Assembly (NCBI GenBank): GCA_051362555.1
Contig: CM120643.1
Coordinates: forward strand, 15,350,644-15,414,643
Length of the DNA stretch: 64,000 nucleotides
Direction of reading: 5' to 3'
Source: Lingula anatina
Taxonomy: Eukaryota; Animalia; Brachiopoda
Part shown: piece after piece, positions 28,146 through 55,600 of the stretch
Layout of the letters: each line of letters begins with the position of its first letter
How positions within the stretch are numbered: the first letter of the stretch is position 1
Notes under the pieces: model-generated
Told to the model about the DNA's origin: nothing
Seen by the model: only the letters and a program-made list of their open reading frames with translations
The model's database searches: none
Program-made: the position numbers and the translations under genes

Positions 28146-31100
28146 TCAAAATTTGCTGACCAGATCGAGAATTTTGGACTGCTCTGCTTCTTTGGCTTCA
28201 GGATTCTTTGCATCCCCAATGTTTCCCGCATACTCTAAAATGTCAAAATAAGGAGCTTTAAAAATCTCCTTTTAGACTACATAAGAGTCAAAATTTATCA
28301 AATTTATTTTTCCAATGAACTGTTTGTCCACTATATCTTATAAAAAGTTTGAACTGATTTGACATTCAACTGCTATGAAGTAATTTTTTTGATAAATGAA
28401 ACTTTCATCCAATCATTACATGAAATCTTACAGATGAAATGTTTTCTTTTTTATTTCATCCTAAAGACACACAATTAGTGCTCAACTTACAAAAAAAAAA
28501 AAAAAATTATATATATATATACTTCCGAAATGTCAACACCATTTCCTTAATCACTAAGGCATACCATATCTAAGATTGTTCACAAAGTATGCCCTGACTT
28601 CAAGTTCCCCAAGTTTTTACTTCTCAGTAATGGAGATGGAAACAATGGAATATCATCTGGACCATGATGGTAAATTTATAAGTCAAAATGGGTACGTGGA
28701 TTGTGAATGGATATTCTTTGATTTTCCAGTGACACATGAGTGAGGGGAAAAGGGTTGAAAAATAATTATTTGAATATGTATGTGCCTAATGCCCTTCACA
28801 TGCTTATAATATATGATGGTCTTACCCCTCATAACACTCTTAATGGTCTTCACTGATCCTCCTCGTAAGTTCAATATCTGCATGACACGCTGCTTTACCT
28901 GAGAATAAAGAGGCATCTCTGTGAAAAAAGTTAGAAAACCTCCCAGTTGAAATATAGCAATGACAACTAAAATCCCCACGATTATGATCAAACAAACTCT
29001 AAAAATCAAAATTTTCTAGTATGTCAAATCTACTAGTCAGCTGCTCTGGACTGGTGGCTAATGAATGCGTACACCTACAGATGACACTCCAGTATCACAT
29101 ATCTCACACTTACAGATGACACTCCCATAACACATATCTCACACTTACAGATGACACTCCCATAACACATATCTCACATTTACAGATGACACTCCCATAA
29201 CACATATCTAACACTTACAGATGGCACTCCCATAACACATCTCACACTTACAGATGGCACTCCCATAACACTTATCTCACACTTACAGATGGCACTCCAG
29301 TAACACATATCTCACACTTACAGATGGCACTCCAGTAACACATATCTCCAGCATGATAAAATCAACCAGTTGCAGTGTAAAGAGGCCAGCATCCAGACGT
29401 CTGAGGTAAAACTGATCCTCCATATCATCATCAATATCACCACCAAAGAATTTCAGGTCCTTTAAAACAGACAAAGAGATTTGAATGACATAGTGTTATA
29501 TCTGATATAAATTGATTTTCTTTTGTGTACATCCTACCTTTCTATATTTTCTCTCATTTTCATTTCATTCCTCCACTGTGTGTTTATAATTAACAATTCA
29601 GTAAGAAATAAACTAATCATATAGAGGTTTTGTTTGCAAATTTAACAATGAAATATCACATCGTGAAAATCTGTAGATATCTTTATTTTCTCATAAAAAA
29701 TATTCAAACAGTGCCTAAAAGCAATTTGGAATGAATTAATGAGCAATATTCATTGTTTTTAAAGTATAAATACTTATTTAGTATTCATTTCAATAACATA
29801 AGAATTAGGAAAATGAGCATTTTAGGATATTTCCTACAATTAGACCCAATATTTGATATTAGTGTTACAGTAGTTAACCTTTTCACCTAAGTAAAAAGAT
29901 ATAGTCATAAAACAAACTCACATTTTTCTCTTTCTCAATCTGCAGGTCCACTTGCCGTACTTTTTCCAGGTACTTAAAGTGGAGTTCCATTAATCTATCA
30001 ACCTGGGAGAAAAAAATAAATTCTGTAAATAACAATAACTGCATAACAAGCAAAATAAAAATTAATGAATAAATAAATTAAATTCACAATAAACTATGCT
30101 ACCAATAAATACAATAATTTCTCTAACTGCTAAAGATAATCAAATTTGTGTAGAGAAAACAAATTTAAAACATTTGGTCATATTTCATCCAGTCATTGCC
30201 ACTGTGATAACAGGAATTCTTTAGGTCACAACAAAAATCTAATCGCATGATCCCAGCAAAAAACCAGTAACTTCTCAATTTCCATGACACCTTCAAAGAT
30301 GAAATATTTGATAGTATTATATTTACTTTTTCATGGTCATTTTCTGTAAATTTGTTGAGCAGCCTCTGGCGCTGGGTTCCGGTGCAGTTCTTTAGTAAGG
30401 AGCCAATGATGGAACAGATGTGTTCTGAAAAATGACATAACTGTTGCTGTCAGACAGATTTATAAAAAAAAAAAAAATACACACACACACACACACACAC
30501 ACACTTCTGGCACGTATATCAAACTTGCTTTACAAAAACTTTGACATCTTCTCTCTCTGGTATAACTAATCAACCACAGTTATTTCATTTGAAAATCAAT
30601 TTTGTTTGATTTTTGTGCATGCTATAAATACTGAAGAAATGGACCTCTGGGAATTTTTGTCATCCATCAAAAAAAAACTTACATTAGTGGATGATGTGAA
30701 AGGCTGACTACTAAATACCTTAGTCAATGGTTTATAATTGAATTTTGATAGCAAAATAAGTCAAGTACAACTCCTCAGACATAAAGCTCCAAGACTCACC
30801 TTCTAATTCCTCGGGTCCCGGGCCTCTCTTGTTTGCCTTTGGAGTCTTCATGAAAACTGGGAAAACACTCCTCAGTCCTAGAATATCTATAAATTTTTGG
30901 CAGTTGTCCACCCCTTCCTGCCCTGTCATGGCATGATCTAGGACCTTAATGGCACTGTTTCTGGACATTTTCTTCTCTCTGGGGATAAAGAGTTAGCTCA
31001 ATATCAAACTTACTAAAGCTGACTCTGCAATTCTGTATTTATCAGCATTTAAGAGCAACTAGTCAACAATAAATGTGGTTCACAAAACCAAAATGTAGTA

Positions 31101-32215
31101 CTGTGATCAATAACTGTCAATAAATATCGTTGTAAAAACAGTCACATCTGCTCTAGAGGCTTTAATTTACTTCAAACAATGTAAAAATAACTTAAGTGCC
31201 CTTTAAAATTCTTTATAAAGCATAACTTGTTCAACTAAAATTCTTCATTCTTTACTAAGACTGATTCTCTATTTTTAATTTGGCAATTTTTGAAATTGGT
31301 CAAAAAAAAAAAAAAAAAAACCTTTAGCAGGACTCACCTTAACATGAGGTTCATCAGCTGCAGTCCTTCACCTTTGAGAAACCTGTCCCTATTGGAGGGC
31401 AGCATGAGAGCCGCACACAGACTGTTGAAGAGGTTTTCCATGTACTCTCCCTCCTCTCCACTGCTTGGATCATGCCTTTTGTAAACCTGTACACACAGAT
31501 AGTAGTTACTGAAGAGTTTCTAGGTGAGGTTATGTTTATATATTTTTCCTTTTATAACCTCTTACCTGATTTTAAAACAATTCCAGGAAGATGAGTTTAG
31601 ATCCTCATCTCCCAGCTGTACTTTCAGAAATAGAATAAATAGAATAAATATTAAAATAGTAAGAATATCTTATTGAAGGTTAACAGCAACCATTATTATT
31701 AGCAGAATTATTTAAAACCACTGTAATTTATTAAATGTAGAATATTTATTTTGTAATTAGTAATTTTTTTATATGTCCAAATTTCATTTTTTACTTGCCA
31801 TAAAGGAAAACTAAAACTATAAGCTTTGTGCGAGTTGGAAAAAACTAAGTCAATTGTGACTACTAATTTTAACTAAATTTTGTGACTTGCTGTCATAATT
31901 TTACAATTATTCAAAATGGCACAAGGGTATGCACAAATTAACTATCCAAGTTATAAAAATAATCCTGGACATTTCTTTAAATTTACCGCTAACTGCTGAA
32001 GTAAAACATCAATGCCATCCATCTCTCCTAAAAGTTCCTGATTTTCTGAAAAAGGAAAAAAATATGCAGATTAGTCCATTTACTTTTTATTTACAGTCCA
32101 AAATATACTCCTTTAAACATTTCAGTTTTTATCAAAAACTAAAACCCATCTCATTACTTTTAACTCTTTCTATTACACTGATTTGAAGAAAGTATAACAG
32201 TTTATTTTTTCCTGT

Positions 32216-32248
<33 letters not shown>

Positions 32249-35200
32249 TTTTGTCTTCATAACATTATACTCACCATCATGATTCTGTAAAAGAATAGCT
32301 AAAATCTCACTGCAGTATAATTTATTGCCTTCAAATGGAATTTTTGCCTGAAAGAAAAAAACAGCTTTTTTTTTTCAACTACATCTTAATGTTATAAAAC
32401 ATCAACTTTTTTAATGTCATTCTGTAATGAAATTTGGCCTTTATCCAAGAAACAACAAAAGACTGCTAGTTTCTATTTCTTTTATAAAAGAAAAATAATT
32501 CACAAATTCAAGTTTCTGGGTAAAAATTGAATAGCAAAAATATGTCTATATCTGAACTCTTCCATCATTTCTTCTGTCTAACTTTTAACTCCACATAATA
32601 TTTTGAGAGATTAGCTGAAGATATTTACTTTCATGTCCCACCCAACTTTGATAGGAGTGTCTGAAGAATATTTTACATTCTGTCAGTGTCTGTTAAAAAA
32701 TGAAAAAGTATTACACTGACCCTACCTTTAATCTTTTTAATAACCATTGCATCAGTCCTTGCTTAGCGGCATCAGGACACACCTCTGGCCTGAACTCTGT
32801 GATATTTTCTATAATTCCTTCATAATAATAGATGGAAATATACACTTCAAGTTAATAATCAAAAGCCAAATTACTGGCATCCAAAATAATGTTAAATAAT
32901 ACAGACTACTGAGACTAGTATATTAATATAGAAATCATGCACATAATGTTAAGCCAATATGTTGTCCAATGTAAATAGCACAGAAATTGGTTCAAAGAAC
33001 TACTTCTAATAATGTAGTTTAAATTAGAGAAAGTGACTCACTTTTGAAATTTGAAACTTTTGAGACAAAATTATTCATCACTTGTACCCACAGATAGTTT
33101 ACAACTGTTACAGTTACTATCTCTGTTTAATCACACCCAGCAGCACTGTTATTTAAAAATAAAACATTTTCTTTTGTTAACACCTACCTAATGTATTGTG
33201 TACACCCTCAGATTCTTCTTTATTTGATTCATCTAACCTTTCCAGATTTTGAACTAATACTGCAACAATTTGTCCTTCAAGCTGAAAGTGTCACAACAGT
33301 AATATTATATAATAAGTTCACTAAAAAAACTGTAAATCTTAAACTTTTAACCTTTTTCAATATTAATCAGTCTGAATCAATCACAAATTAAATATTCTAA
33401 AAATAATGAATCAAACATCTGACCTTATTTTGTTCAAAATAAGTGAAAAATGACCATAACATGAAAATTTTGAAAATAAATTAACAAACAATCCAAAGCA
33501 CATTCATGTATATTTTGTACTTAGTTGCCCAAATTTTTTCAGCCATTGGTGAAAATTATCATGGGTAAGCTGTGCTCACATCAGGAATAACTTAGACTTA
33601 AACTTTGTTAACAGTAGTTGCAAAAGAGACTTCACCGCCTACACAATTTGGGGCACAATTTGGGGCGGATTTAATTAAGCTGTTGTTAGTTGTAAAATGC
33701 CTATTATTTTTTCATTTGCTGAAGATACTTTACCAGTAATCTGAAACACAGAATCCACACCAGCAGTCATAAAATAGACCCCTGGTTGTGGCAAATGGAC
33801 CATTTTCGATCCAAATTTGCCCCTGTGTGAACACATCCATACTTACCAGGGCATCAACTAAAGCTTCGGCACCCTCCTCACTTTCATTTAATGTGTCGAC
33901 GTCTGTGAGTTCCTGGAGAAGATCTACCACTGCTATGCTTATATCTGCAAGAATAATGAGGTACATAACAAAATATGTTCATCACTAGCTAAACCTGAAC
34001 AAAAATCACTCCATATCATAAAACTTTGGTTTGTTACTAAAATGGGGCAATGGTGTTTCGAAAAAGAATATAGTATTCTCTTCCTGCTACTGACATCTGT
34101 TCATATATACATATAAATTAATAAATATGTTTACTGTGATTTTCTACCTGTATTTTCATGTGAAAGTAGCTGTAGTAGTGACTGGATAGCATTCATTTCT
34201 ACTAAGATGTAGTACAAGTCTGGGGCGGTGGCTATTACATGCATCTCATGAATCATGTCATTCATCTCGAGTTCCGACTCCATAAACCTGAAATTAATGC
34301 AGGCATTAAATGTAATTAGCAAATATGTAACAAAATAATAAAGCAATTAATATTTTTAGAAATTACACGTGATGCATAACTGTGACATAAATTTTATCTG
34401 GCATAATGTGCTGCATTGATACTGATGGTCCTGATACTTCTAAGCATACAAGCTATTGTCTCTTTCTTCCAAACTGAACTAGAATATATATTTTACTTCA
34501 ATACAGAATATGATGAAAACTGCAAGTTAAAACTGCTGGCATCCTGCTTAAAGTATGAAAATTACATGCCTCTTCAGATGTTACTAAAAATTCATAATTT
34601 AAAGATTAAAGCTATTTTGACATCTATTTATCATCATTTTAAAAACATTGCTTTCTTTTGCCCACTTCTGTCACCAGAGTCTTACTTTTCAGGAAGATCT
34701 GGGAACTTTATTCTCATCTCCTGGTTCTTGTAGGCTTTCTTCTCAAACTGTAGAATCATCTTCTTCAAAGTTGTCTCATCCATGGGAGGGGCCTGCAACA
34801 AAAAATGTACATAATTACATAAGGATAAATATGAAGAGTAAGTTCAAATCACATGCCATATTTACTGTCAAATTTCAAGCCCACTTTTTTAAAATCACTG
34901 TATCTTTACAGGATTTCTTATACTTTCAGTAACTGACAAAAACAGTATTACTTTCCTACATCCAACTCACTTAACAGAACTGATAAATTTTCTGTTCCAA
35001 TATTACTTTCAAGGAACTTCTTTGGAAATTTTAACTTCTAGTTCCTAATCTTACATGTAGTGCTGGAGTGCATTTATAATTTAACCAAAAAACTCCAAAT
35101 TTATTTACAAACAAACTAAAATGACTGTTCTGCATGTTGACAATTTTTCATTAAAGAATAATCTACCTCTGGTTCCTCTTCGACCATCTTCAGAATTTTT

Positions 35201-35835
35201 TCTCGCTCATCTTCTGAAATTCTTGGCGTTGATTGGTTGGTTATCACAGGCTGTTTTTTTCTCGACTTCGTTCTTCCTCGATCTTCATCCTCATTTTTAC
35301 GTTTCAGAGTACCCAGCGCAGGTTTTTCTGGCTGCATTTACCAAAGATATAAATTTCAGATTTGTGTATCTTTTTCCTGATTTATATACTGTTCACACAA
35401 AATGACAAATGTTGTTAAGTATACAATGGATTTTTATGTAGGGAATACACTTTTAGTCAATATTCAAAATATGAATCATAATAAACAAACATCAAAATGA
35501 CTACCAATAAATTTCCCCCAAAGTCGCTAAAGAAAAAGGATGAGAAAAGGAACAGAGAATGATCTTAAAATTTATTACGGGGGCATAAACATGACACTTG
35601 CAGCATTTGGCTACCCCCCCCCCCCCCCCCCTCCCACAACAGGTCGGGGTTTAGTGTATTTCTAGTTGCTAAGTGGCAAAGTAGGCAAAAATAAAACAGC
35701 TGTCGAAAATTGAAGCAAATATAGACAGTCACTGGCATTAATGAAAAGTTTCAAAGACATGGAAGATATCAGTGGGTCGGAATCACTGCGAACAGGCCAC
35801 ACTACCTGAAAGGACAAAAGCTCGCCGACGTCCAT
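28146..35835 (-). CDS. CTNNBL1: Beta-catenin-like protein 1 (PRP19/CDC5L spliceosome complex), 554 aa, 16 exons
   Basis: Exons (5' to 3') 35835-35806, 35331-35167, 34792-34686, 34287-34148, 33944-33847, 33281-33188, 32817-32726, 32347-32275, 32045-31987, 31486-31338, 30978-30800, 30424-30327, 30002-29922, 29459-29322, 28898-28826, 28234-28146 total 1665 nt in frame. Diagnostic peptides: MDVGELLSFQP, KNQEMRIKFPD, FMESELE, DISIAVVDLLQELTD, FLKGEGLQLMNLMLREKK, KFTENDHEKVDRLMELHFKY, FYLRRLDAGLFTLQ. Confidence 0.97.
29072..29349 (-). repeat. 35-bp minisatellite (8 copies) spanning the CTNNBL1 exon 14/intron 14 junction
   Basis: Unit on the minus strand is GAGATATGTGTTACTGGAGTGCCATCT|GTAAGTGT. The first copy is the real exon end. 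Confidence 0.92.
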
Positions 35836-36285: not shown

Positions 36286-36673
36286 GTATATTATTGAAGA
36301 TGGGTATCTAATCCATTGTATTTTTTCATCATTTGTAGTCTTCTAATGTTCATGATAAGTTAATTAAGTATTATTGACGATTTGTATAGGGCAGTTGATT
36401 TCTTTTACTGCTTATATAAAGTTGATTTTGAAATTCTAGTCATTACTTAATTGGATACATTGGACGAGAGTGATGCAAGAACGAACAAGGTCTTGGTTCT
36501 GACTTTTTAGGTTTCATTTTATTTTTGTTGACCTGGACTCTTTCAGTCAGTCAGGAGATGATGTCACAGGAAAAGGGTTTGGCAAGTTTAATCCATTTGC
36601 TTATTTTAAACATTTTTGTTAAAAAAAAACGAATATGTAACTTTATTATTGTTGTTCATCCTTAGACTGTAGC

Positions 36674-39600
36674 ATGGAAGCCCCAGAAGATCAAAACCTG
36701 TCCTTGGAGGAAGGCATTGAGGCTGCACAGGAGGCCAGAGAGTCTGACCCAGAGGCTGAGCAGGGGGTCAGGGATGAGGAAGAGGAGGATGCAGGGAGAG
36801 AAGAGGACAGCGGGGCTGAGGATATCCAGGATGAGCAGGTAAAGAAAACCTTTGTGAAACCTGTCTTACAAAAGCAATGAAAGTGGACAGTTGGTCTGAA
36901 CTTTTAAGCCAAAACTATGGTCTACTACAGTTTAAAATAAATCCAGTGTAGGCTGTTGAATAAAGTAAGCATTTTAAAAGCAGAAACTTACATATTTTAC
37001 TTGTTGTAAAATATGGACAACATTTCCTTCAGTGTTTTTTAGATGTGTATTGTATCATCAATTCATTACTCTGTGTTTAAAGAACTAACGAAAGGTAGCA
37101 TAGAACTGTACTCTTAATTGAGATGTCTCATATTTATTTAAAGATAAGATAATGATATTATTTACATATTTTAATCCTAAAGCAACACCAAAGGCGATCA
37201 GCAGTGGTTGCAGTATTTGCATTTTTCCTGATCTTTTTAGACCAGTAAATCTCAATAATGTCCAGTCTGATACAGTGAGAAAAATCAATACAGTATGGCT
37301 TTTTCTAGTCACTAGACTAGTTATTTTGAAAATTGATGAAATTATAATTTCTGATAAACTTACATCACAATAAAAAATCCAGCTTAAGTAATTATTAATT
37401 AACAAGAAATTTTATTGATAACAATGCCCCTCCTTGTACAGCATGCTACTCCACGACACATTACCTTTCACACTACGAGTGACTCCCATAAACCTATTAT
37501 CAGAGCCCACAACCTTAACATAGTACCAGTGATCCCTTAAATTTATGTTTTTGTCTATAAACATTAGCAGTTACAGTTAAGGTATTCAATAATAAAAAAA
37601 ATCTGGATTAATTGAGGTTGAATCACATTTGATTTATTTTCTAGGCTGGCTCTGGTGCAGAAGATGATGCCTCTGATGTGGAGGGGGACCAGTTAGTTAC
37701 CTCAGAAGATAATCCAGAAGGACAAGTGCCTGTTGTGGAACAACTTCAAGATGTGAGCCAACCCCAGTCTGCTGGTCAAGGAGCAGATGGACTATATCTA
37801 CCTCCAGAAGAGAGCGTCCCTTCTCAGACTGATGATGGTAGACTGGTGTCCAGCAGTGCTGAGGCGCCTGAGACTGAAGTTGACCAGTCACATCTCCTGT
37901 TGCAAAGCGAGGCTGACCAGGCACAGCTGACTTCCCAAACTGAGGCTGACCAATCACAAGCAATGTTGCAAGTAGAACCTGATCAGTCCCAGGTCAATTT
38001 ACACACTGAAGCTGACCAATCACCAATAGCTTCAGAAATTGAGGCTGACCAGTCACGGTCAGCCTTGCAAGTCGAGGCAGATCAGAATGAAGGGGCTGCC
38101 CAGCCAGTGTTTGGGGAGGATTCCACAGACAGAGAAGCAACACGGGACAGCACTGAAGAGGTTTCTGAAACCGAGAGCACGGGTGAGGTGGATGACGCAG
38201 AAGAAAGCACACAGGACTCACAATTCACTGCAGATAGCACCAACCAGGGGATCCCTTCATATTCTGTGATTTCTGGAGTAAGTGACCCCCCTGGGTCACT
38301 CACTGGGGACTCTCAGTCCCAGTCTTTGCCATGGGAGGGTTATTTTGGTGGTGCTGCCCCTGGCTCCCACCCAGAGGAGTCTCAGTCCCAGTCTCTGACA
38401 GGGGAGGGGCTCTATGGAGAAAGAGATGCCACAGAGGATATTTCTCAGGACTCCTCAATACAGCAGGGGGACATTGAGGAGGAGGAAAGGGGTGGACTGT
38501 CTGACCAGATATGTGATAGTAATCAAAATGATTCTCAAAGTGCGATTATCAAACAGGACACTGAAAACCAGGGACAGGGAAATCCTCCAACACAGAGTGA
38601 TTATGGTATAGAAAGGTTGGGTATCAATGGAGATAGTGACAGTGCCACCCCAGGGATAAGAGATGGTGGTGGTTCCACCACAGGGATGGCCCCAGATAGT
38701 GGGTGTAATCAGGCAATCCTGTCAGAGGGTGAGGATGGAGAGGGAGAAAGCTCAGATAGCGGGGAAATTGAGGAAGAGAAAGACAGTGGTAAAATGGGGA
38801 CGGATCAGAAAAATGCCACACAGCACCAAACTGATGTAAAAGCTAAGAGGAAAGACAACCCTTTGAAACATGATTTAAATGAGGATCACGTTGAGCTGGA
38901 CTTTGAAGAAGATGTGGTGGATGTGCATGCAAGTGAGAGTGGGATGTTAGTGGATGGACAGAAGGAAGAAATGGATGACACTGGAAGAAAAGAGGAAGGT
39001 GAAGAATCGGAAGAAGAGGGAGAAGAAAAGGTATTTATTGGCAGAATTTCAGTTAGAATGTACAAGCTCTCTTTGAATGTACATAAACTTAAAAAAAACT
39101 ATTGATAATATTTTTTACTGATGTTTAAGTTTGAGTATTTTAGTAGTATTTTCTAATGTAGTATTGCTGGTAAATGGTAACTTATTGCTTAATAATATAA
39201 TGTCCTTTTTTGTCAGTGTCATTTTATTATCAATATTTTTTACACACATTGAGATTTTCACGGAATGTACCAAAAAAACAATTAATTGTTTTTATTACTG
39301 TAGCAGTAACAAGTAACCTTCATTAGTTTGGTATCTTTCAAGTGAGGTGAGGTTAAAAATCTACAGTTTATATTACGTAAAAAAAGTAATTAGAGGAAAA
39401 TCTTATGATTATCTTGCGATTATTTAATGAAACCCTGGAAAAAAGAAAAATTAATGTTGACTATGTTTCAGTAAGAAAATAAAAACTAAGAAGTTTGTTG
39501 ACTTGTTTGCAGGAAGAAGGAGAAGCAAGATCTGGAGACGAGGGTGAGATAGAGGTCAGTGCTGGATGATACATAGCGAAAAGTTCAAATGAATTCAATT

Positions 39601-42600
39601 AACTCGTCCCATTGCAGACAACTGATGCATTCAGACATGAGCTCATCAAATAGTAGAATATTTGCACTTATGAATATTATTTGATATGAACATTTCAGAT
39701 ATCACATATGGATCACAAATATTTTAAATGTAAATGTTATAGATTTAATAGATGAAAAAGGAAAATTGATAAAAAGAGAACTATTTGAGTAGATTATAGT
39801 TGATTTTTATGACGGGCAAGGGTTTCCCCAGAGAGCCATCCTGTCGCCATTTGGACAGCCACTGGCTTCAAAAGATGGCCTAAATACAAAGACAGCTGGA
39901 CAGCTTATAAAAATTTTGAGAATGACAATATATTTTAGTTGTGAATCTGTAAATAGGTGAACAAATAACAACAGATCAACATTTTAGGTTCCCTGCTCCC
40001 CAAATCCTGGTGAAACCCCTGATGCTGAACTTGTATTTTTCTGTGTTTTGCCGTGGATACTTTGATGAAAAATTTTACTTAACTCTATTAGGATGAAGAT
40101 TGTGAAGAAGGAGAAATAAAGGACCCTGATGGGAGAAAGCCATTTGTAAGGCCGATGTGTCGTTTTTTCAATAGAGGGCACTGCACATGGGGCCCTTCTT
40201 GTCGATTTCTTCACCCTGGGGTCAATGACAAAGGTGAGCAAAAAGGGTTTGTTAAATATGCAGCTAGAGTAAAGGAAACGTTTGATATTTGACCAAAATA
40301 ATATATATTATGACGTATATTTATTTATGCTATACAATAAGCTGAAAAATCAACTATCAAAAGCACTGTGTTTCATTTTTATGTACAGACACAGATGTGT
40401 CTGTACATATAGCCATCATCTGCGTCTGTCGTCGCCGTCGTCGCCGTCGCCGTGCACTTTTACCGATAACATGATAAGTGGAAAACCATTTTGCCTTTTG
40501 ATTTGAAACTTGCAGAACTGATGTATATTCATAATACGCAGGTCAAGTTCGAAAATCAGCATGATCGGGTCACTCTTAGGGAATTTATGCTGTTTTTTCA
40601 CTTTTTTCAACATATATGCAGCACTGATAACACGATAAGTGGAAAACCATTTTACCTTTTGACTTGAAACTTACCGAACTGATGAATATTCATAATACGC
40701 AGGTCAAGTTCGAAAATCAGCATGATCGGGTCACTTTTAGGGAATTTATGCAGTTTTTTCACTTGTCAGCATATATGCAGCACCGATAACACGATAAGTG
40801 GAAAACCATTTTACCTTTTGACTTGAAACTTACAGAACTGATGAATATTCATAATACGCAGGTCAAGTTTGAAAATCAGCATGATTGGGCTATTTTGAGG
40901 GAATTTATGCTGTTTTTTCCCTATTTTCAGCATAAATGCAACACTGATAACACAATATAAGAAAAACGGATTGGCCAATTGTAATTATACTCACAGGAGT
41001 GGTCAATCTTACTAAAACGCAGGTTGAGTTCGAAAATCAGCATAATCGGGCCATTATTTTAGAAGTTATACTGTTTTTTTCACATTTCCTCAGATTCAAT
41101 TCTTAAGCATGTTAACAGTCTCATTATTTAACTAATAAGATGCCCAAAAGTGTTTGTTTGATATTTCCTGCATCTTTACAACATTGTTAGTTGATTATGT
41201 AAAAAACATGGTAAACTTGTTATCATGTATTGTGTAATAAAGTGTCAAAAATGGAAATAAACTCATATCATTGCAGTTTGTCAGATTCAATCATCCACTA
41301 TGTTCAGAATCTCAGAATGGAGGAAATTGGACATTTAACACTGTTCTATTGATACTTTTCCCATTTCATCAATTTTTTTAGTTGGTCATATAAAAATGGC
41401 AGTAAAATGTTTATTTTGTTTTATGTTAAAAAAGTGTTAAAAATGGAAATAAACCCATTTCAGAACAGTGCTGTCTTGTTCAGCATATATGCAACACCGT
41501 AAACACGATAAGTGAAAAACTGTATTACATTTTGGCTTGAAACTTACAGTACTGATGAATATTCATAATACGCCGGTTAAGTTCGAAAATCAGCATGATC
41601 GGGTAATTTTTAGGGAAGTTATGCTTTTTTTTCACTTTTTTCAGCATATATGCAACACTGTAAACACGATAAGTGAAAAACTGTATTACATTTTGGTTTG
41701 AAACTTACAGAACTGATGAATATTCATAATTCGCCGGTCAAGTTCGAATATCAGCATGATTGGGTAATTTTTAGGGAAGTAATGCTTTTTTTTCACTTTT
41801 TTCAGCATATATGCAACACCGTAAACACAATATAAGAAAAACAGATTGGCCAATTGTCATTGTACTCACAGGAGTGGTCAATCTTGCTAAAATGCAGGTT
41901 GAGTTCAAAATCAGTATAATCGGGCCATTATTTTAGGAGTTATGCTGTTTTTTCACAATTCCACAGATTCAATTCTTAGGCATGTTAACAGTCTCATAAT
42001 TGAAAGTGTTTGTTTGATATTTCCTGCATCTTTACAACATTTTTAGCTGATTATGTAAAAATGGTGGTAAACTTGTTATCGTGTATTGTGTAATAAAGTG
42101 TCAAAAATGGAAATAAACTCATATCATTGCAGTTTGTCAGATGCATTCATCCTCTATGTTCAGAATCTCAGAATGGAGGAAGTTGGACATTTAACACTGT
42201 TCTATTGATACTTTTCCCATCTCATCAATTTTCTTCATTGGTCATATAAAAATGGCAGTAAGCTGTTTATTTTGTTTTATGTTAAAATAGTGTTAAAAAT
42301 GGAAATAAACCCATTTCAGAACAGTGCTGTCTTGTTTACATTTTGGCATTTTCAATATGTGACTTAAAGGACAATGTTCATGTAAAAATCCATTTCTCGA
42401 ATTTTGAAGATACAGCACTCAATCTATACACTAGAGGTATGTTTTAATCGATCCCCGCCATTTAAAAATTATAAAAACAATCTATTAGTAGAAAAAAAAG
42501 CGTTTTAGTAAACCTCACCTCAATATGCAAAAATGAAGCAACAGATCTGGGTCACGTGGTACTGTGACGACAATCACGATAAAGGTCTATGAGACTCAAC

Positions 42601-45600
42601 TGAGCTGCATGGTGCATAGTTAGGAAGTTTAGAAGTTAAGGAAAGTTGTGTTGAACGGAGTTGAGGAATTTTCGTTATGCCTCGGTGTGTTGCCGTGGGA
42701 TTCACCAAAATTGCAGCTCTTTCTTTGTCTGTGACGGTCTTCCGTGACTTACTTACTAACTTCGGTGACAATAGTTGCGATGCTCTAGATCATGGTCACC
42801 TCAGGTGGTTTAGATCATATCAAGAGCTGGTAGTCTTTCAGATTAACTATCATCAGTTGGCAAACTTACTGATTGCTGATGCATTTTAAATGCATTGTAG
42901 TTGACCAAAAGCTCGTTTACAACAAACCTGTTAATTATGCACAGCTGCAATTCCCAACCCAGGTAATAACAGGTATGAAACTAGTCTTGGTGGGCTTTCA
43001 TATTTTTCAATATATCTCATTTATTTCATGGGGTTATTTTTTTGGTATTTGTAAATGACGTTAAATATCAATACTTAAACAATTAAGTTCAAACACGGTC
43101 GCGAACATTAATAAAAGAAATTGCTCTCAGGGTATCTTGAAGCTTCCGTGGAAGAAAACGTGTTGAGGAAAAACAGGAAAAAGAGCGTTATATTAAAGAA
43201 AAAATGGGAACTGCTATAATAAAATGGTTCGTTATCCTAATTCGTTTATGCTTTGAGGATTTGTTTCTGAAGATTATTTCATCTGAAATATTAAATAATT
43301 TAAAAGATTGATTATTTTATAACTTGAAACGCAAATTCTGCGTCAGTACGCAATTTTTTTTTTGCAAATTTGTAAGCTTATAACACCGTGCTATAAAGAT
43401 CTACTCAAGAAAAAAATTTGCTTGGGTAAAATTGAGTACGGAATGAACTGGAGACACTTGGCTTGTCATTAAGTTTACACGAAAATATGTCAGGTAACTT
43501 TATACTGTCTTTGAAAGAGTAAAGATTGAAAGATAATTTTAGACAAACTTTGACGGGGGAAATACCTACAAAGAGTAATGGGCTATTTCGCCAACATCTT
43601 GTTGAACATTTTACACTGCAATTCTATTCAAATAAGCTAAGGAACTAATTGCCAAATTAATACTCTCATCACATAACAGGGGGGTAACCAGACCTGCAAA
43701 AATTGTACGCACATATTTAAAAAGATTACAAGCACATACAGCAAAATGTAGACTTACGCAAAACATGAAGGACAGTGTAATCACAGCAAATGTACCTCAT
43801 ATAGTAGCTTAATTTCCATTAATAATAAAATCATCATTTAAGTCAAAAATATTCTTGCGATTTAATAACTATTTTAATTTACCCAGAACGGTATATTTAT
43901 TTTAAAGGCGGTTAACTGAAATATAGTTTTATGATTTGTTTGTGAAAATTGCCCATGTCACCCTGTTAGTTTGGAGGTCTAAGCTGGATCAAGTCCGAGT
44001 TAAAATTCCTATGAAGTTGTGCAGGAAAAATTCTTCCTTTCTTTCTCTAGCTCCTCGATAAACCTGGTGTTCAGATTTTATCTAGTACCCCCAGGTCTAC
44101 GGGAGCTGCGCTTTGTAACTAACGCACAGGTAGATTTTTACCTGAGATAACTGGAGTAAAGCTTAGATAGAGAGTGCGTTCGATACAAGCAAGGCAAATT
44201 GAATGCCATTTAACCCTCTAATTAAGAGGTAAAGGAAGTTCCAGGTAGATGGATGATTAAGATAGGACTTGTAAAGGTAACGGGCATTGTTTACCTCAGT
44301 TTAATAAAAGTATGCAAGACGGAGTGTCAGCGGTTTAATAAAATAAATTGAATTTCACAAATAACATGGACCTCATATGCAATAATCAACATTTCCCTTA
44401 ACTCATTCAAATGCAGTGTTTTATACAACTTGGGATAACCATAATGAAATGCTTGTTAAAGAAATGACTAGACGGGAAATGGTTTTACACAGCTTCACGA
44501 GGATTTAGACCCCTCGGGTAAGAGATTTGAATGAGTATAAACTTTTATCAGACGCCAGAGAAGTCATCTTACAGGTAGACAATGCAGCTCAGTTTGACTG
44601 CTAAGCACGCTCTGTTCTCCAGTGGCTCGATTGTCGTCATTGGACCACGTGACCACGTAGCTCATTAACTCCCAGGCCGAGCAAATAGGACGTTTTTTAA
44701 AGCCAAAAATTTACCAAATGAGCTTTTAATTTGTGTATTTGGATAAAGATATCGTTAGTTGGGCATGTTTTCTGAAGAATATGTTCCGTTCAGGCCATTC
44801 TGACGGCATGAAGCAAACCCTTTAAAGTTCCATGGGCCTGAAGACTTTTGCTAGTCACATTTTCTGAATAACCATGATACTAATATTTTATAATTAAAAA
44901 TTGATGGTCATTATGCTGCAAAACATTAGGTAATCTTGCATCAAAATTTGAAGAAACCCCTATTTTGGGCACTGCTCCCATGATGACCATTTAAGGAAAA
45001 TCATGTCACTTACTGTTCTCAAACTTACAGGAAAGAAACATGGGTCTAAAATACAGCTTCAGTAGACAATGCAGTCTGTTTGGTAAATTTTTCTGGCAAT
45101 TAAACAGTTTTTTGTGAAAATTTAATTTTTTACTTATTGGCATTTCCAAGGTGTGACTTAGAACCTCCACGGGCTTGAAGACCCATGCTAGTCACATTTT
45201 CTTAAATCCATGACAGGTATAATTTATTATGAAAAATGGATGGTCATTATGCTGTAAAACATTATGTAATATTGCATCAAAATTTGAAGAAACCCCTATT
45301 TTGGGCACTGCTCCCATGATGACCATTTAAGGAAAGTCATGTCACTTACTGTTCTCAAACTTACAGGAAAGAAACATGGGACTAAAATACAGCTTCAGTA
45401 GGCAATGCAGTCTGTTTGGTAAATTTTTCTGGTAGTTAAGCAGTTTTTTTGTGAAAATGTAATTTTTCACATATTGGCATTTTCAATGTATGACTTAGAA
45501 CCTCCACGGGCTTGAAGACCCATGCTAGTCACATTTTCTGAAAATTCATGACACTTATATTTTATTATTAAAAATCGATGGTCATTATGCCGTTAAGCAT

Positions 45601-46567
45601 TATGTAATGTTGCATCAAAATAGAAGAAAACACAATTTTGGGTGCTGCTGCCTTGATGACCATTATGGGAAAACTGTGTTACTTATGACTGTCAAACTTT
45701 CAAAAAAGAAACACAGGACTAAAATGCAGCCTGAGTTGGAAAAGCAGTCTAATTGGCTTCTTTTTCTGGAAGCTATACATTTTAGTGTAATATTCATTAT
45801 CTTTTTGGCATATTCATTGTGGGACTCAGAGCTCCCATGGACATGAAGCCGAATGGTAATCATATTTTCTACATGTCCATCCTATTTATAGTCAATAAAC
45901 AAAAATTGGTGATAATTATTCTCTAATTTATTATGTAATGTTACATCAAAATTGACAACAATCTTTTTGCACTGCTACTGCAAACATTATGAAAAGAAAA
46001 CTGTGCTACTTATTATCATTTTTAACTTACAAGTACGATTTTTAGGATTGGCCTTCAGCTCATATGAGAAAACCAGCTCTATTGGATTATCATTTTTATT
46101 GAATTTATGCATTTTTTGTGAAATTTTCAATTTTCTCATTCTGGCACTTTCTAAGTATAAACTTGAACTCCGATGGGCCTGAAGCCTTATGCTTTTAATT
46201 TCGTCTGTGTTACCTGTTGTGCATAAGTTGATGTTGACTGTGCAGATAAACATAATGTATTATTGCATCAGGATTGGTAGTCTCCTATTTTGGGCATTAT
46301 GGTTTTGTGCTTTTCTTAAAGTGTGACTTATGGGCCGAAAGACCTTTGAGTGGGTCAGTCTGTAAATTACCCTTGGGTATCACTAGATGAATTTCAAAGT
46401 TATAAAGTCATTTGCCTTAATAGGCCATTAAATGAGATTACATAAAGCACACTTGTTGATATTTCCCTGTAAACTCCCAAAGGTAAAGCTCTCTGCTAGA
46501 TTAATAATAAGGAAGCAGTGATAATTATGCAGGTAAATTTTGTTTAATATTGCAAATAAGTTTTAAA

Positions 46568-46633
<66 letters not shown>

Positions 46634-49600
46634 TTGTGACATTTAGTTTTCAGGAGTAGACTTTCTTAAAGAGCACTACTTCAAAATATCTGAGATGAAA
46701 AATATCCAAATGAGTGAAGCTTAAAAAAATTGTTTTTCCATATATATTCATATATACTATTTAGTATAAACTGAAGGCATTATAAATTAAATTTTCAACC
46801 CAACTCCACTGTAAATAATGGTGTTTATCATTTGAGACACCTGTATAACTTTTTAATCTTTAAATCACTGCAATTAAGCTCATTATCCATCCCTCCCATA
46901 TAAATGCAATAAAAATTCTGTTAATAATGAGATCAAATGTGTTCCCGATTTACCTTATTACTAAATCTCCCCAAAAATACCTAGTATTTGATATATATAT
47001 ATATATATATATCAAACTGGAAGATTAAAAGTTTGAATAGCATCTTCATAGGAATTATATTTACCTCAAGCTCTGCCAAGGAGGTCATATTTTCACCCCC
47101 GTTTGTCTGTCATCCACATAACACAAAAAGTTAAGGACTGATTTTGCAGAAATTTTCAGGAACTGTCGGAAGTGGGCCAAAGAGGACAATGATTAATTTT
47201 TGGTGGTGGTCTGGAACAATAATCAATCAATTATCAATAATAATCAACAATTGCTGCCTTGGCAGAGGTCTGCACTCTCAAAGTGCTTTTCTAGCTTTGT
47301 TATGTTTTCCTTTATAATTTTTTCTCAAACACTTGCATTTGTGACTTTTAACTCTCATCTGCCTGGGGCTCTGCACATTTTCTGTATTTCCACATAAGCA
47401 GTTGTATTGTTTTTTATGTCTTTAAACATTATGTAATATTATTTTATGCACTGTCATCATTTTTCAAATATTGAGAGTTTCATAGTGTGAATTTGAACTC
47501 TCATGGTCCTGAAACTGTAATTTTATTGAAGGGGTGGACCATCTCCTGGGTCTTCCTGAAGACAGTCAGGTTATTAAGTTTATATTGACTGGTATCTATT
47601 TTTTTCTGTTGGAAGACCATCAAAATGGAGGATGGATCAACATAGATACTTTGTAATACTGTCAGAAAATATCTCTGGGTCCGCTCCTGTTATTGACCAT
47701 GTTACCTGTTGTGCAAGATTAAAATTCAGTGTTGACTGACAGTGCTATTATAAGCATTATTTATTATTGCATCAAAATTGACAAAATGACCTATTTTGCA
47801 TCTTTATTTTCTGTTTTTTTGTCTGTACATTTGACAGCTTTGCTGCCTTGTTTCACCATTATAATTAATAGTAGAAATATCAAAAGCAGTAGCAATGGTA
47901 AAATTAGGAAAAAAAGCTTGAAAACGTGCATTGTATTTGGTTGCCATTCAGTATTATTGTTTATTTGGAATCTGTTATTTTTCTTCTCTTCCAGGTAACT
48001 ACTCCCTGATAGAAAGACCAGGGTTTCACCCCCCAGGGAGGCTGGGGCAGCCTGGGGGTCAGGGACCCCGGGGACAGGAGGTATTATTGTAATATATATA
48101 TATTTTTACTTTTTGTTTGATGTATAATTCATATATATGCTACTTAAGCATAGATTTCAGATTAGTTTCTTATATGAAGTCCTGCTTAGTTCTACCATGT
48201 CTAGTTGCAAATAAAGTCATCAGTTTTTGTAAAAAAATGTTTGGTAAATTGAATTAAATACCTTTCCATGAATTATTTGATGATATTTATTATTATAATA
48301 TTTATTTACCTGTAATATGTTTAGTTGGCTTGATTTATTTTACGTCTTCTTAATATTACTGTTCTGTATCATATAGGGTAATCCAGTGGAAGAACTTCCC
48401 CCACCCCCTCCAGTGGAGGAACCTGCTACAGAGAGTGCCTGGGAAAGAGGGCTGAGGCAAGCCAAGGAGGTACAAGGACATGGGAGTTTTTGTGTATATG
48501 GGTTAAATGGGGTACCCAAAACTTTTAAGCCCATTGGTCGGTTGGACCAGCAGACCTTAGAAAACTATATGGCCAAATTTGCAATAATTGACAATAATTG
48601 ACTTTCCCAAAGATAAAATCTGTAATTTAATGGAAAAATAATCTAAAACAGCCTTTGAAATTTCTAATAGCCTGAATTGACAAGTCACTTTGAAATTTTT
48701 CCGTTGCTTCTATCCCAATTCATACAGTAACTGATTGCTTTGGACTGACATTGCAGACTGGGAAAAATATGCATCAGCTCCATCAAATATGCCATATTAC
48801 TTCCCCTACTGAACTTCAGCCCACAAAATACCGTGTATAGATATGCTTTTAAACCACAGTCTCACATGCTTGCTGTTTTAAGTGAATTAAACTGGACTGT
48901 TTGATGATTAACTTTTTACTGGCTTTAATGCAATATTACAGCACAAGTAGTTGTCACATTGCTCTAAAATATTGTATTAGGATTTAGAAGATGGTATTCC
49001 TAAAAATGTATTTTCAGAGAGAAAAGGATAACTTGAGACAACCAAATGATCAACATCTGTCACATAACTGGAACTTAAGATATTTATTGTCAGTTTTATT
49101 CTGATTCAAGCTGATGAAGAAGGCCAGTAAAAAGAAAGAACAAGAGGTGAACTTACATGAGAAGCGCCTCACACTGAGTATAGAGGATCAAGACAGGGAG
49201 ATGAATAAAGAAAACGACAGGAGAAGATTTGAGCCAGACCCGTACTATGATGACATGTAAGTAGACTTACACAGGTATGGGCAGGTTATGATGACAAATA
49301 CTAGGTATTTTTGGGGAGATTTAGTAATAAGGTAAATCGGGAACACATTTGATCTCATTATTAACAGAATTTTTATTGCATTTATATGGGAGGGATGGAT
49401 AATGAGCTTAATTGCAGTGATTTAAAGATTAAAAAGTTATACAGGTGTCTCAAATGATAAACACCATTATTTACAGTGGAGTTGGGTTGAAAATTTAATT
49501 TATAATGCCTTCAGTTTATACTAAATAGTATATATGAATATATATGGAAAAACAATTTTTTTAAGCTTCACTCATTTGGATATTTTTCATCTCAGATATT

Positions 49601-52600
49601 TTGAAGTAGTGTTCTTTAAGAAAGTCTACTCCTGAAAACTAAATGTCACAAGCAAAATTAGAAATCAGATAAAAACCTGTAATAGTGCTTAAGAAATTGT
49701 ACTACTTACTGTGGGATTTCTGTTGAAAAATTGTAGAATTTGCTGAAGCATATTGAGATTAGGTTGGTAACAATATGCAAGTGAAAAATCAACTATTTTT
49801 TTTAATCTGTAGGTTTGATGATCCTTACTATACAAAAGAACTAGACATCCATCCGTACGAGAACTTTGAAGTACGCTGGAGTCGGGAGCCTTTGCCACCA
49901 CCGCCTCAGGAATATTACCCCAGGGTACGTAATATGAAGCAAGATATCCAAGTCCTAACTTCATCTTTTTTATGTACAGACACAGATGTGTCTGTACAAA
50001 TAGCCATCATCTGCGTCTGTCGTCGCCGTCGCCGTGCACTTTTACCGATAACACGATAAGTGGAAAACCATTTTACCTTTTGACTTGAAACTTGCAGAAC
50101 TGATGAATATTCATAATACGCAGGTCAAGTTCGAAAATCAGCATGATCGGGTCACTTTTAGGGAATTTATGCAGTTTTTTCACTTTTTTCAGCATATATG
50201 CAGCACCGATAACACGATAAATGGAAAACCATTTTACCTTTTGACTTGAAACTTACAGAACTGATGAATATTCATAATACGCAGGTCAAGTTCGAAAATC
50301 AGCATGATTGGGCTATTTTGAGGGAATTTATGCTGTTTTTTCACTATTTTCAATATAAATGCAACACTGATAACACAATATTAGAAAAACGGATTGGCCA
50401 ATTGTAATTATACTCACAGGAGTGGTCAATCTTACTAAAACGCAGGTTGAGTTCGAAAATCAGCATAATCGGGCCATTATTTTAGAAGTTATACTGTTTT
50501 TTTTCACATTTCCTCAGATTCAATTCTTAAGCATGTTAACAGTCTCATAATTTAACTAATAAGATGCCTAAAAGTGTTTGTTTGATATTTCCTGCATTTT
50601 TACAACATTGTTAGTTGATTATGTAAAAAACATGGTAAACTTGTTATCATGTATTGTGTAATAAAGTGTCAAAAATGGAAATAAACTCATATCATTGCAG
50701 TTTGTCAGATTCAATCATCCACTATGTTCAGAATCTCAGAATGGAGGAAATTGGACATTTAACACTGTTCTATTGATACTTTTCCCATCTCATCAATTTT
50801 CTTCATTGGTCATATAAAAATGGCAGTAAACTGTTTATTTTGTTTTATGTTAAAATAGTGTTAAAAATGGAAATAAACCCATTTCAGAACAGTGCTGTCT
50901 TGTTTACATTTTGGCATTTTCAATATGTGACTTTAAAGTTCCATGGGTCTGAAGACTTTTGCTAGTCACATTTTCTGAATAACCATGATACTAATATTTT
51001 ATAATTAAAAATTGATGGTCATTATGCTGCAAAACATTATGTAATGTTGCATCAAAATTTGAAGAAACCCCTATTTTGGGCACTGCTCCCATGATGACCA
51101 TTTAAGGAAAATCATGTCAATTACTGTTCTCAAACTTACAGGAAAGAAACATGGGTCTAAAATACAGCTTCAGCAGACAATGCAGTCTGTTTGGTAAATT
51201 TTTCTGGCAATTAAACAGTTTTTTGTGAAAATTTAATTTTTTACTTATTGGCATTTCCAAGGTGTGACTTAGAACCTCCATGGGCTTGAAGACCCATGCT
51301 AGTCACATTTTCTTTAAATCCATGACAGGTATAATTTATTATGAAAAATGGATGGTCATTATGCTGTAAAACATTATGTAATATTGCATCAAAATTTGAA
51401 GAAACCCCTATTTTGGGCACTGCTCCCATGATGACCATTTAAGGAAAGTCATGTCACTTACTGTTCTCAAACTTACAGGAAAAAAACATGGGACTAAAAT
51501 ACAGCTTCAGTAGGCAATGCAGTCTGTTTGGTAAATTTTTCTGGTAGTTAAGCAGTTTTTTTGTGAAAATTTAATTTTTCACATATTGGCATTTTCAATG
51601 TATGACTTTGAAGTTCCATGATCCTGAAGACCTTTGCTTGTCACATTTTCTGAATATGCGTTATACTAATATTTTATAATTAAAAATTGATGGTCATTAT
51701 GCTGTTAAACATTATGTAATGTTGCATCAAAATTTGAAGAAACCCCTGTTTTGGGCACTGCTCCCATGATGACCATTTAAGGAAAATCGTGTCAATTACT
51801 GTTCTCAAACTTACAGGAAAGAAACATGGGTCTAAAATACAGCTTCAGTAGGCAATGCAGTCTGTTTGGTAAATTTTTCTGGCAATTAAACAGTTTTTTG
51901 TGAAAATGTAATTTTTCACATATTGGCATTTCCAAGGTGTGACTTAGAACCTCCACGGGCTTGAAGACCCATGCTAGTCACATTTTCTGAAAATTCATGA
52001 CACTTATATTTTATTATTAAAAATCGATGGTCATTATGCCGTTAAGCATTATGTAATGTTGCATCAAAATAGGTGAAAACACAATTTTGGGTGCTGCTGC
52101 CTTGATGACCATTATGGGAAAACTGTGTTACTTATGACTGTCAAACTTTCAAAAAAGAAACACAGGACTAAATGCAGCTTGAGTTGGAAAAGCAGTCTAA
52201 TTGGCTTCTTTTTCTGGAAGCTATACATTTTAGTGTAATATTCATTATCTTTTTGGCATATTCATTGTGGGACTCAGAGCTCCCATGGACATGAAGCCGA
52301 ATGGTAATCATATTTTCTACATGTCCATCCTATTTATAGTCAGTAAACAAAAATTGGTGATAATTATTCTTTAATTTATTATGTAATGTTACATCAAAAT
52401 TGACAACAATCTTTTTGCACTGCTACTGCAAACATTATGAAAAGAAAACTGTGCTACTTATTATAATTTTAAACTTACAAGTACGATTTTTAGGATTGGC
52501 CTTCAGCTCATATGAGAAAACCAGCTCTATTGGATTATCATTTTTATTGAATTTATGCATTTTTTGAGAAATTTTCATTTTTCTCATTCTGGCACTTTCT

Positions 52601-55600
52601 AAGTATAAACTTGAACTCCGATGGGCCTGAAGCCTTATGCTTTTAATTTCGTCTGTGTTACCTGTTGTGCATAAGTTGATGTTGACTGTGCAGTTAAACA
52701 TAATGTATTATTGCATCAGGATTGGTAGTCTCCTATTTTGGGCATTATGGTTTTGTGCTTTTCTTAAAGTGTGACTTATGGGCCTAAAGACCTTTGAGTG
52801 GGTCAGTCTGTAAATTACCCTTGGGTATCACTAGATTAATTTCAGAGTTATAAAGTCATTTGCCTTAATAGGCCATTAAATGAGATTACATAAAGCACAC
52901 TTGTTGATATTTCCCTGTAAACTCCCAAAGGTAAAGCTCTCTGCTAGATTAATAATAAGGAAGCAGTGATAATTATGCAGGTAAATTTTGTTTAATATTG
53001 CAAATAAGTTTTAAATATATATATATATCAAACTGGAAGATTAAAAGTTTGAATAGCATCTTCATTGGAATTATATTTACCTCAAGCTCTGCCAAGGAGG
53101 TCATATTTTCACCCCCGTTTGTCTGTCATCCACATAACACAAAAAGTTATGGACTGATTTTGCAGAAATTTTCAGGAACTGTCGGAAGTGGGCCAAAGAG
53201 GACAATGATTAATTTTTGGTGGTGGTCTGGAACAATAATCAATCAATTATCAATAATAATCAACAATTGCTGCCTTGGCAGAGGTCTGCACTCTCAAAGT
53301 GCTTTTCTAGCTTTGTTATGTTTTCCTTTATAATTTTTTCTCAAACACTTGCATTTGTGACTTTTAACTCTCATCTGCCTGGGGCTCTGCACATTTTCTG
53401 TATTTCCACATAAGCAGTTGTATTGTTTTTTTATGTCTTTAAACATTATGTAATATTATTTTATGCACTGTCATCATTTTTCAAATATTGAGAGTTTCAT
53501 AATGTGAATTTGAACTCTCATGGTCCTGAAACTGTAATTTTATTGAAGGGGTGGACCATCTTCTGGGTCTTCCTGAAGACAGTCAGGTTATTAAGTTTAT
53601 ATTGACTGGTATCTATTTTTTTCTGTTGGAAGACCATCAAAATGGAGGATGGATCAACATAGATACTTTGTAATACTGTCAGAAAATATCTCTGGGTCCG
53701 CTCCTGTTATTGACCATGTTACCTGTTGTGCAAGATTAAAATTCAGTGTTGACTGACATAAGCATTATTTATTATTGCATCAAAATTGACAAAATGACCT
53801 ATTTTGCATCTTTATTTGTTGTTTTTTGTCTGTACATTTGACAGCTTTGCTGCCTTGTTTAGTCACTTTGGCTCGTGATAGAGATGGAGACTCATGCTGT
53901 CAAAGTAGAAACTAACAACCCCTTTAAAAAGTTTCATAGATTGTAATTTTTCTCAACAGGTTGAATGCAGTATAAATTAGTGATTTAGTATTTTGTAGAA
54001 GTTTCCAGAAAAATGAAAGATATATAAATTTAGTTGAGTATTGTATACTTTTCAGCAACAAAAAAAGTGCATGATATTTAAATGTTTTCTTTAATGCAAG
54101 TGGAAATATGTAGCAATGAATTTAAGCAAACTTAACCAAATAACATTCATTAAAATATACTTGCACTCTGTTATTGATGTGGCTAGTGAAAGTAGGTTAG
54201 AGACAGGGAATTGTTTTAAATGTGACAAAAATTATGCTTGGAACAGTATATTCATTTTTGTTTTTAAAAAAAGTTTTTAAAAAAGTGAATTGTTTTAAAG
54301 CAGTTTGTTTTTCCTATGAGGCACACCATTTCAGCCCTTCACCACTTAACTCACGTCAACAAGTCAGCCATGTAATCAAGATCATTTTCTCATCTCTCAT
54401 GTGTAGAAACAAGTTCAATCTCTTTAGAAATGAATAACTGGTTGAACACGTTTAATATATTTGTTTCTTTTTTTTTTTCACCCATGACCTTATGCTGTGA
54501 GAAAAACACTCATTTTTAACAAAATGTTATTTTTTTTCTAAATAGGGGCATGACTACCCACCTATGAATCGTGACAGGAGAAGGGAGAGAAGGAGAAGTC
54601 CATCTCCTCACAGGTACCAATTTATTTCCTAAGATTTTCTTTCTTATTTCCTTCTGTTTTTTTCTGATTACAAGCAGAATTTACTTCTGTTTGCTTAATC
54701 TGATTATCTTCATATCATTTCATATACTGAATGAGATAAGTTAAACCTTGGTCACTGTTCACAAATTAACAATTTTTTTTTAATGGGCATTCCTGTTGTT
54801 GAGGTGAAAATTGCTGATATTTTAAAGAATTTTCATGCCGTTTTTCTTTTCCAGATGCCTTTGAATCTGTATTTTGACATTTATGTCTGTATATTTGCCA
54901 GCCTTGTCTGGTTTTACTTCTTCTTCACTGATATCTCAAAAAAATTATTCTCTTTGAATTCAGGCCAAGGGAGCACCGCAGACACAGAGAGCGTGTCCGT
55001 GAGCGCATAGAACGGGAGCCAAATCCACCACCTCAGAGAGTTTTGCCCGACAGTAAACCACCTCCAGAGACAATGGGGAACAAAAATAATAAGCCAGATG
55101 AATGGAGAGATCCTTGGATGAGGTTTGTGAATAAATGATTTACCTCAGAAAAAGAAAAAAAATGTTTTGTCAGATGATGTTTGAAAACCTATTTAAAGGA
55201 AAGATTATTTTTCATATATTTATGGTCTTTGGCCCTTGTAAAAAGACTTTTTGGTGAAAAAAGAATCTCAGTATGGACTAGATGTGGTTTTACCAGCAAG
55301 GCATGGCTGAAAACCTCTGCTGACCTAGCTCTACAAGTTTATGGCCCTGATGAATGAAACAGTCTTCCAATGCACTTGAAAATCATAGAGACTCAAGACA
55401 TTAAGATTTTAAAAAAGAACTTAAGGCTTCGTTCACATGGAATGTCTGTTTTCTAAAAATCTATTTTCTATTCGCGCTATCTTATGATCACGGTCTGTGC
55501 CCTGAATATCCTGCCGCGTAATTACTGGCAGCGCGAGCCAGTTACTTATAGTAACTTATAGTAACTGGCTCGCGCTGCCAGTAATTACGCCGCGGGATAT

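Follow-up and report, generated by a model that had tools for sequence, protein, structure and literature searches.

Eight tandem 5' splice sites in a CTNNBL1 minisatellite of Lingula anatina, with splicing at the first donor in the sequenced mRNA

CTNNBL1 of the brachiopod Lingula anatina carries a 35-bp minisatellite of eight units, the first of which straddles the exon 14/intron 14 border, and the 5' splice site is reiterated along the array. The sequenced CTNNBL1 mRNA is spliced at the first of these sites (donor 1). The array is probably a tolerated, turning-over minisatellite with one donor in use and seven mostly silent pseudo-donors, and not a control device. The features listed here lie in the window, the whole stretch of 64,000 nucleotides that was analysed (a slash marks the exon/intron border).

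28146..35835, minus strand: CTNNBL1 coding span, 16 GT-AG exons, 554 aa
29322..29459, minus strand: exon 14, 138 nt, residues 456-501; RNA reads cover the exon
28899..29321, minus strand: intron 14, 423 nt, with 251 nt occupied by the array
28826..28898, minus strand: exon 15, 73 nt, begins GTAAAG
29071..29348, minus strand: 35-bp minisatellite, 8 units; unit 1 straddles the exon 14/intron 14 border and unit 4 has 33 bp
29314..29324, minus strand: authentic donor 1, TCT/GTAAGTGT; the intron starts at 29321; sole donor seen in use in the reads
29071..29313, minus strand: seven intronic copies with pseudo-donors, none with a listed junction
29283..29285, minus strand: TAA within pseudo-donor 2, the stop for donors 3-8 or for a retained intron 14

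CTNNBL1 is a member of the Prp19 complex. The array-bearing exon is number 14 because the 16 coding exons reconstruct the 554-aa open reading frame. The 46-residue peptide of exon 14 resembles human beta-catenin-like protein 1 (PDB match, E 4e-10) and is 100% identical in two 554-aa Lingula anatina records; Pfam PF08216 is present on the Lingula protein that matches the window CTNNBL1. The window protein differs at one residue from record P0002 (553/554 identical) and at four from P0003. Both database proteins read VPS-VKQR, which is the splice product of donor 1. The two records are three residues apart and lie on different contigs, and the window protein is unlike either; the three are probably haplotypes of one gene. 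The length of intron 14 is ordinary for CTNNBL1 (15 introns, 203-591 nt). The first four letters of exon 15 are identical to the first four of intron 14.

An acidic gene on the plus strand (36641-39105) stands head to head with CTNNBL1, its first open reading frame about 800 bp from the CTNNBL1 ATG; it has a 486-codon open frame with an internal 33-bp repeat (37881-37958) and no Pfam match. Farther along the plus strand (about 48377-61172) are exons of an RS- and proline-rich protein, the last piece of which we take to resemble the ZC3H18 C-terminus; the one open reading frame scanned gave no Pfam match. Tandem arrays of long period, with units of 161 bp and 336/337 bp, recur as two pairs about 6-10 kb apart (40462-41832, 44829-45750, 50044-50476 and 50906-52198), with near-identical spurious open reading frames behind the 336-bp arrays (45987-46259 and 52435-52707). 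These paired arrays look like a repeated element with internal satellites.

Tandem Repeats Finder places the CTNNBL1 array at 29071-29348 (period 35, 8.0 copies, 93% matches, score 437). The repeat unit, read on the minus strand, consists of the final 27 nt of exon 14 and 8 nt of intron 14, and unit 4 lacks 2 nt (33 nt). The preliminary description had reported eight tandem 5' splice sites at this border, which is confirmed with coordinates shifted by one base, and the sequence agrees with its account of the unit as exon end plus intron start. CT/GTAAGT is kept in six of the eight units; donor 5 (29183) reads GTAAAT and donor 8 (29078) reads GTAGGT. The first intron bases of pseudo-donors 2-8 are at 29286, 29251, 29218, 29183, 29148, 29113 and 29078, and among these intronic copies CT/GTAAGT is intact in 5/7 and GT in 7/7. 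GTAAGT occurs six times in the array, against 0.13 expected per 278 nt on one strand at the window's own frequency. Copy 2 matches the end of exon 14 exactly (units 1 and 2 are identical, as are units 6 and 7), and the remaining copies differ from it at three to five positions. Pairwise, the units differ at 0-7 positions in an ordered pattern. Unit 8 is the most divergent relative to the middle units (4-7 differences), as expected when array edges escape homogenisation.

The donors of units 1-4 are identical from -12 to +8 and are spaced 33-35 nt apart. Scored against the U1 consensus, donors 1-4, 6 and 7 match equally, with 7 Watson-Crick positions of 11; the true CTNNBL1 donors have 6-10 Watson-Crick positions to U1. 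The predicted unpaired probability of positions +1 to +6 is 0.23 for donor 1; across donors 2-7 it spans 0.14-0.42, and at donor 8 it falls to 0.003. Donor 1 is predicted to be no more open locally than donors 3-7. A general masking of the pseudo-donors by RNA structure was therefore rejected, donor 8 alone being predicted to be paired. As neither U1 match nor local folding sets donor 1 apart, position is its remaining difference.

Donor 1 gives the full 554-aa CTNNBL1. Donors 2-8 are all predicted to give one and the same 513-aa product, in which the final 53 residues are swapped for 12. Donor 2 adds 35 nt, and the immediate stop is a TAA created at the start of exon 15; this frameshift had been described before and stands, as does the position of the TAA at 29285-29283 in the shifted frame. 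The earlier statement that only donor 1 keeps the frame needs a refinement: the added length is 138 nt for donor 5 and 243 nt for donor 8, both multiples of three, and these two donors fail only through the TAA at 29285-29283. NMD acts on transcripts whose stop codon precedes the last junction by more than 50-55 nt. In the predicted donor 2-8 isoforms the premature stop lies 69-277 nt upstream of that junction, and these products would therefore be NMD targets.

Splicing was followed in seven (X1-X5, X7 and X8) of the nine raw-read RNA runs under the same species label, which come from three studies; 6-26% of each run was read. Joints and loose ends were listed only at three or more reads per run, and the depth table shows single reads. 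The reads represent steady-state RNA, which hides NMD targets, and none of the runs is known to be NMD-blocked. The RNA came from animals other than that of the window, several fixed exon sites being different. All 141 exon 14-15 junction reads (seven runs, X1 counted once) are compatible with donor 1. Over the stretch 29038-29457, in 14-nt bins, donor-1 junction reads number 38 in X1, 38 in X2, 33 in X3 and 5 in X5; over 28700-30100 they number 39 in X1, 9 in X4, 7 in X7 and 11 in X8. Six of the 141 (two in X1, four in X2) fit two places, which leaves 135 unambiguous reads. Allelic differences where exon 15 begins shift the joint rows of X7 and X8, and the read letters assign these rows to donor 1; five reads among them have an allelic letter at the last base of exon 14. 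The preliminary description had one of several near-identical donors being picked and had named junction RNA-seq as the check, and in steady-state RNA the reads show donor 1 only.

No exon 14-15 joint at donors 2-8 is listed in the seven runs at three or more reads per run. The linker 29314-29317 tests these donors, because each transcript from a later donor holds it beside exon 14; it is covered by 0 reads in the seven runs, against the 135 unambiguous donor-1 reads. The depth over the array is zero in X1, X2, X4, X5, X7 and X8. With 135 reads, use of other donors is bounded at 2.2% (95% upper limit), or at 4.3% if each fragment was counted twice; for X3, the only run shown to carry the array, the bound is 9% (33 reads) to 16%. 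Exon 13-14 joints number 30 (8 in X1, 3 in X4, 6 in X7 and 13 in X8), against which no 13-15 joint, that is, skipping of exon 14, is listed in these four runs. Use of donor 2 in X1, suggested by a depth of 1.09 over 29264-29310, was rejected, as finer bins resolve this signal into short overhangs that fit both copies. An X3 read on 29283-29313 considered as donor-2 use does not include the linker and is ambiguous between copies. About one read pair of X1 lies on the opposite strand over intron 15, exon 15 and intron 14 (28700-28981) and would be antisense RNA or DNA carry-over.

Three sense-strand reads of X3, each of about 150 nt (450 letters), lie wholly inside the array, from 29076 to at most 29243. 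They start at about two places and perhaps represent two molecules. At five listed sites they depart from the window: three successive units have G at -6, donor 5 reads GTAAGT, and unit 5 opens with the consensus letter. An array model made of one uniform unit, namely window copy 6 carrying that G as its single change, predicts each of these five differences; it gives nine differences per X3 read, and the cleanest read shows eight others by the count of the tool. In these three reads X3 thus shares across copies a unit variant that the window lacks, and the X3 allele is homogenised differently from the window array. The whole array is spanned by no read or contig from another animal in the seven runs. 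The X3 reads run unspliced through four consecutive intact donors; therefore, those four were unused in these molecules. Most simply, the reads are pre-mRNA or a retained intron; they could possibly derive from splicing at a donor farther downstream. Relative to exon-end depth, they make up 5.6% in X3 and 1.5% pooled over X1, X2, X3 and X5. RNA that contains the intron thus exists, and its downstream junction was not seen. One X3 array read ends at 29076 (12/12 decompositions), the point at which a donor-8 splice would cease to match; it was not counted as such a splice, because an allele with GTAAGT at donor 8 predicts the same clip (mismatch at 29075).

Selection acts on the protein that exon 14 encodes, a constraint of which the copies give no sign. 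Among the exon 14 variants tested in the reads, 15 of 16 are synonymous; in the same frame, the copies have come to encode other residues and one stop. Conversion from copy to exon gave no clear signal: the variant at 29334 is the letter of copies 3-7, and the neighbouring change is absent. Exons 13-15 (28826-29994) contain several synonymous sites at which all seven RNA runs have a fixed difference from the window, and X7 and X8 diverge further from X1-X5 despite the shared species label. These differences may reflect deep population structure or cryptic species.

A leak to donor 2 or later, affecting anything from a few percent to some tens of percent of transcripts that NMD then removes, is unlikely. 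It would be a passive cost, which may grow with the number of units, and no regulated switch. Such a leak could escape notice: with a stop 69-277 nt upstream of the final junction, all alternative products would be scarce in polyA RNA. Copy 2 matches the true border exactly, X3 does hold three array reads, and human 6-16 and CBS splice at two additional donors according to the available text of PMC1557585. However, reads from exon 14 into copy 2 number 0 against 135 unambiguous donor-1 reads, and the array reads of X3, being unspliced over four consecutive donors, exclude those donors in those molecules. It is very unlikely that donors 2-8 form a length-tunable poison ladder, which would lead, at a rate masked in steady-state RNA, to the NMD-bound 513-aa isoform, with unit number setting the dose of CTNNBL1. 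The preliminary description had suggested that repeat number tunes CTNNBL1 through NMD-coupled autoregulation; this idea found no support, neither a donor 2-8 junction nor exon 14 skipping being listed at three or more reads per run.

Regulated feedback, in which the CTNNBL1 level or the cell state moves donor choice down the ladder and repeat number acts as the gain, is hardly credible. The identity of CTNNBL1 as a splicing factor and the convergence of seven alternatives on one truncated 513-aa product would suit it, but the alternative junctions are absent from seven runs of three studies, and the array differs between animals and appears homogenised rather than conserved. The same architecture also occurs in F7, globin and Adh3, genes unrelated to splicing, and searches of the open-access literature for CTNNBL1 with NMD and autoregulation, or with poison exon, each brought up one review in which the gene is mentioned a single time; among the papers listed, none dealt with its autoregulation. 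The chance that the array is a mis-assembled duplication is negligible. The unit number of the window itself is taken from the assembly; against an artefact, the units differ from each other in an ordered way (0-7 positions), and another animal yields three raw reads, each about 150 nt long, that fall entirely within a related array. The raw-read check for an artefact, proposed earlier, thus finds a variant array in another animal and the array to be real.

Border-spanning minisatellites are known from other genes. The 37-bp VNTR of human F7 intron 7 has 5-9 units with identical donors (Borensztajn et al. 2006, PMC1557585); in the available text of that paper, the most upstream functional donor is used alone, the next is activated once the upstream donor is mutated, and the molecular cause of this preference is left open. 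The same text summarises the LMNB2 and PDGF intron 4 minisatellites, in which only the first donor is used, and those of human 6-16 and CBS intron 13, in which two further donors are used. The amphioxus 'mirage' minisatellites (Adh3 and globins BflGb6/BflGb9) retain splice signals while splicing is undisturbed, and they evolve in concert with divergent edge units, according to the available part of PMC3087553. The available part of PMC10078293 contains nothing on border-spanning repeats, and no paper on this Lingula locus was found in the open-access literature.

As far as these sources describe it, F7 resembles CTNNBL1 in that unit 1 spans the exon/intron border, identical donors are reiterated and the most upstream is used; its 5-9 units of 37 bp compare with 8 of 35 bp in Lingula, and the exon contributes 4 nt to its unit versus 27 nt in CTNNBL1. 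The preliminary description had invoked a preference for the intron-proximal site; such arrays behave otherwise, the most upstream functional donor being the one used in F7 (PMC1557585, available text). Length polymorphism and pseudo-donor competence are experimental for F7, whereas the CTNNBL1 array is known from sequence and RNA reads. The 'mirages', as described in the part of PMC3087553 available, share with CTNNBL1 an invertebrate border duplication that includes coding sequence, kept splice signals, normal splicing and concerted evolution with divergent edge units. They differ in phylum and gene and in the globin units of 150-160 bp, and length and somatic instability are shown for them. 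The arrays of 6-16, CBS, LMNB2 and PDGF likewise have border-spanning units and many reiterated donors; from the summary available, CTNNBL1 is like LMNB2 and PDGF (no extra donor seen in use) and unlike 6-16 and CBS (two extra). Set against the F7/'mirage' class, the CTNNBL1 array is head-to-tail, with unit 1 over an authentic border that the reads confirm; the splice signal is reiterated in the intronic units, donor 1 dominates steady-state mRNA, and turnover and homogenisation of units between alleles are seen in three X3 reads. As for AS-NMD, the premature stop in the predicted donor 2-8 isoforms precedes the last junction by more than 50-55 nt, and an unproductive CTNNBL1 isoform was not seen in the seven steady-state RNA runs, none known to be NMD-blocked.

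We infer that the minisatellite was seeded when the exon 14/intron 14 border was duplicated in tandem, and that slippage or unequal exchange drove its growth and turnover. Donor 1 would prevail through its position, as the first functional donor downstream of the exon 14 acceptor, and this choice may be made through exon definition or on a 5'-to-3' first-come basis, as argued for F7. In transcripts from rare donor errors, the premature stop would lie over 55 nt upstream of the last junction; NMD would clear these transcripts, and because of this clearance the array would be nearly neutral.

The array in Lingula is probably an unexceptional further case of a repeat type already described in human and lancelet genes; with it the known class of border minisatellites gains a brachiopod member. 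It suggests that the upstream-donor preference of human F7 also holds in a lophotrochozoan. CTNNBL1 offers a tidy natural test case, human F7 being already more tractable. If NMD-blocked RNA showed length-dependent leakage, repeat polymorphism would set the level of a spliceosome component.
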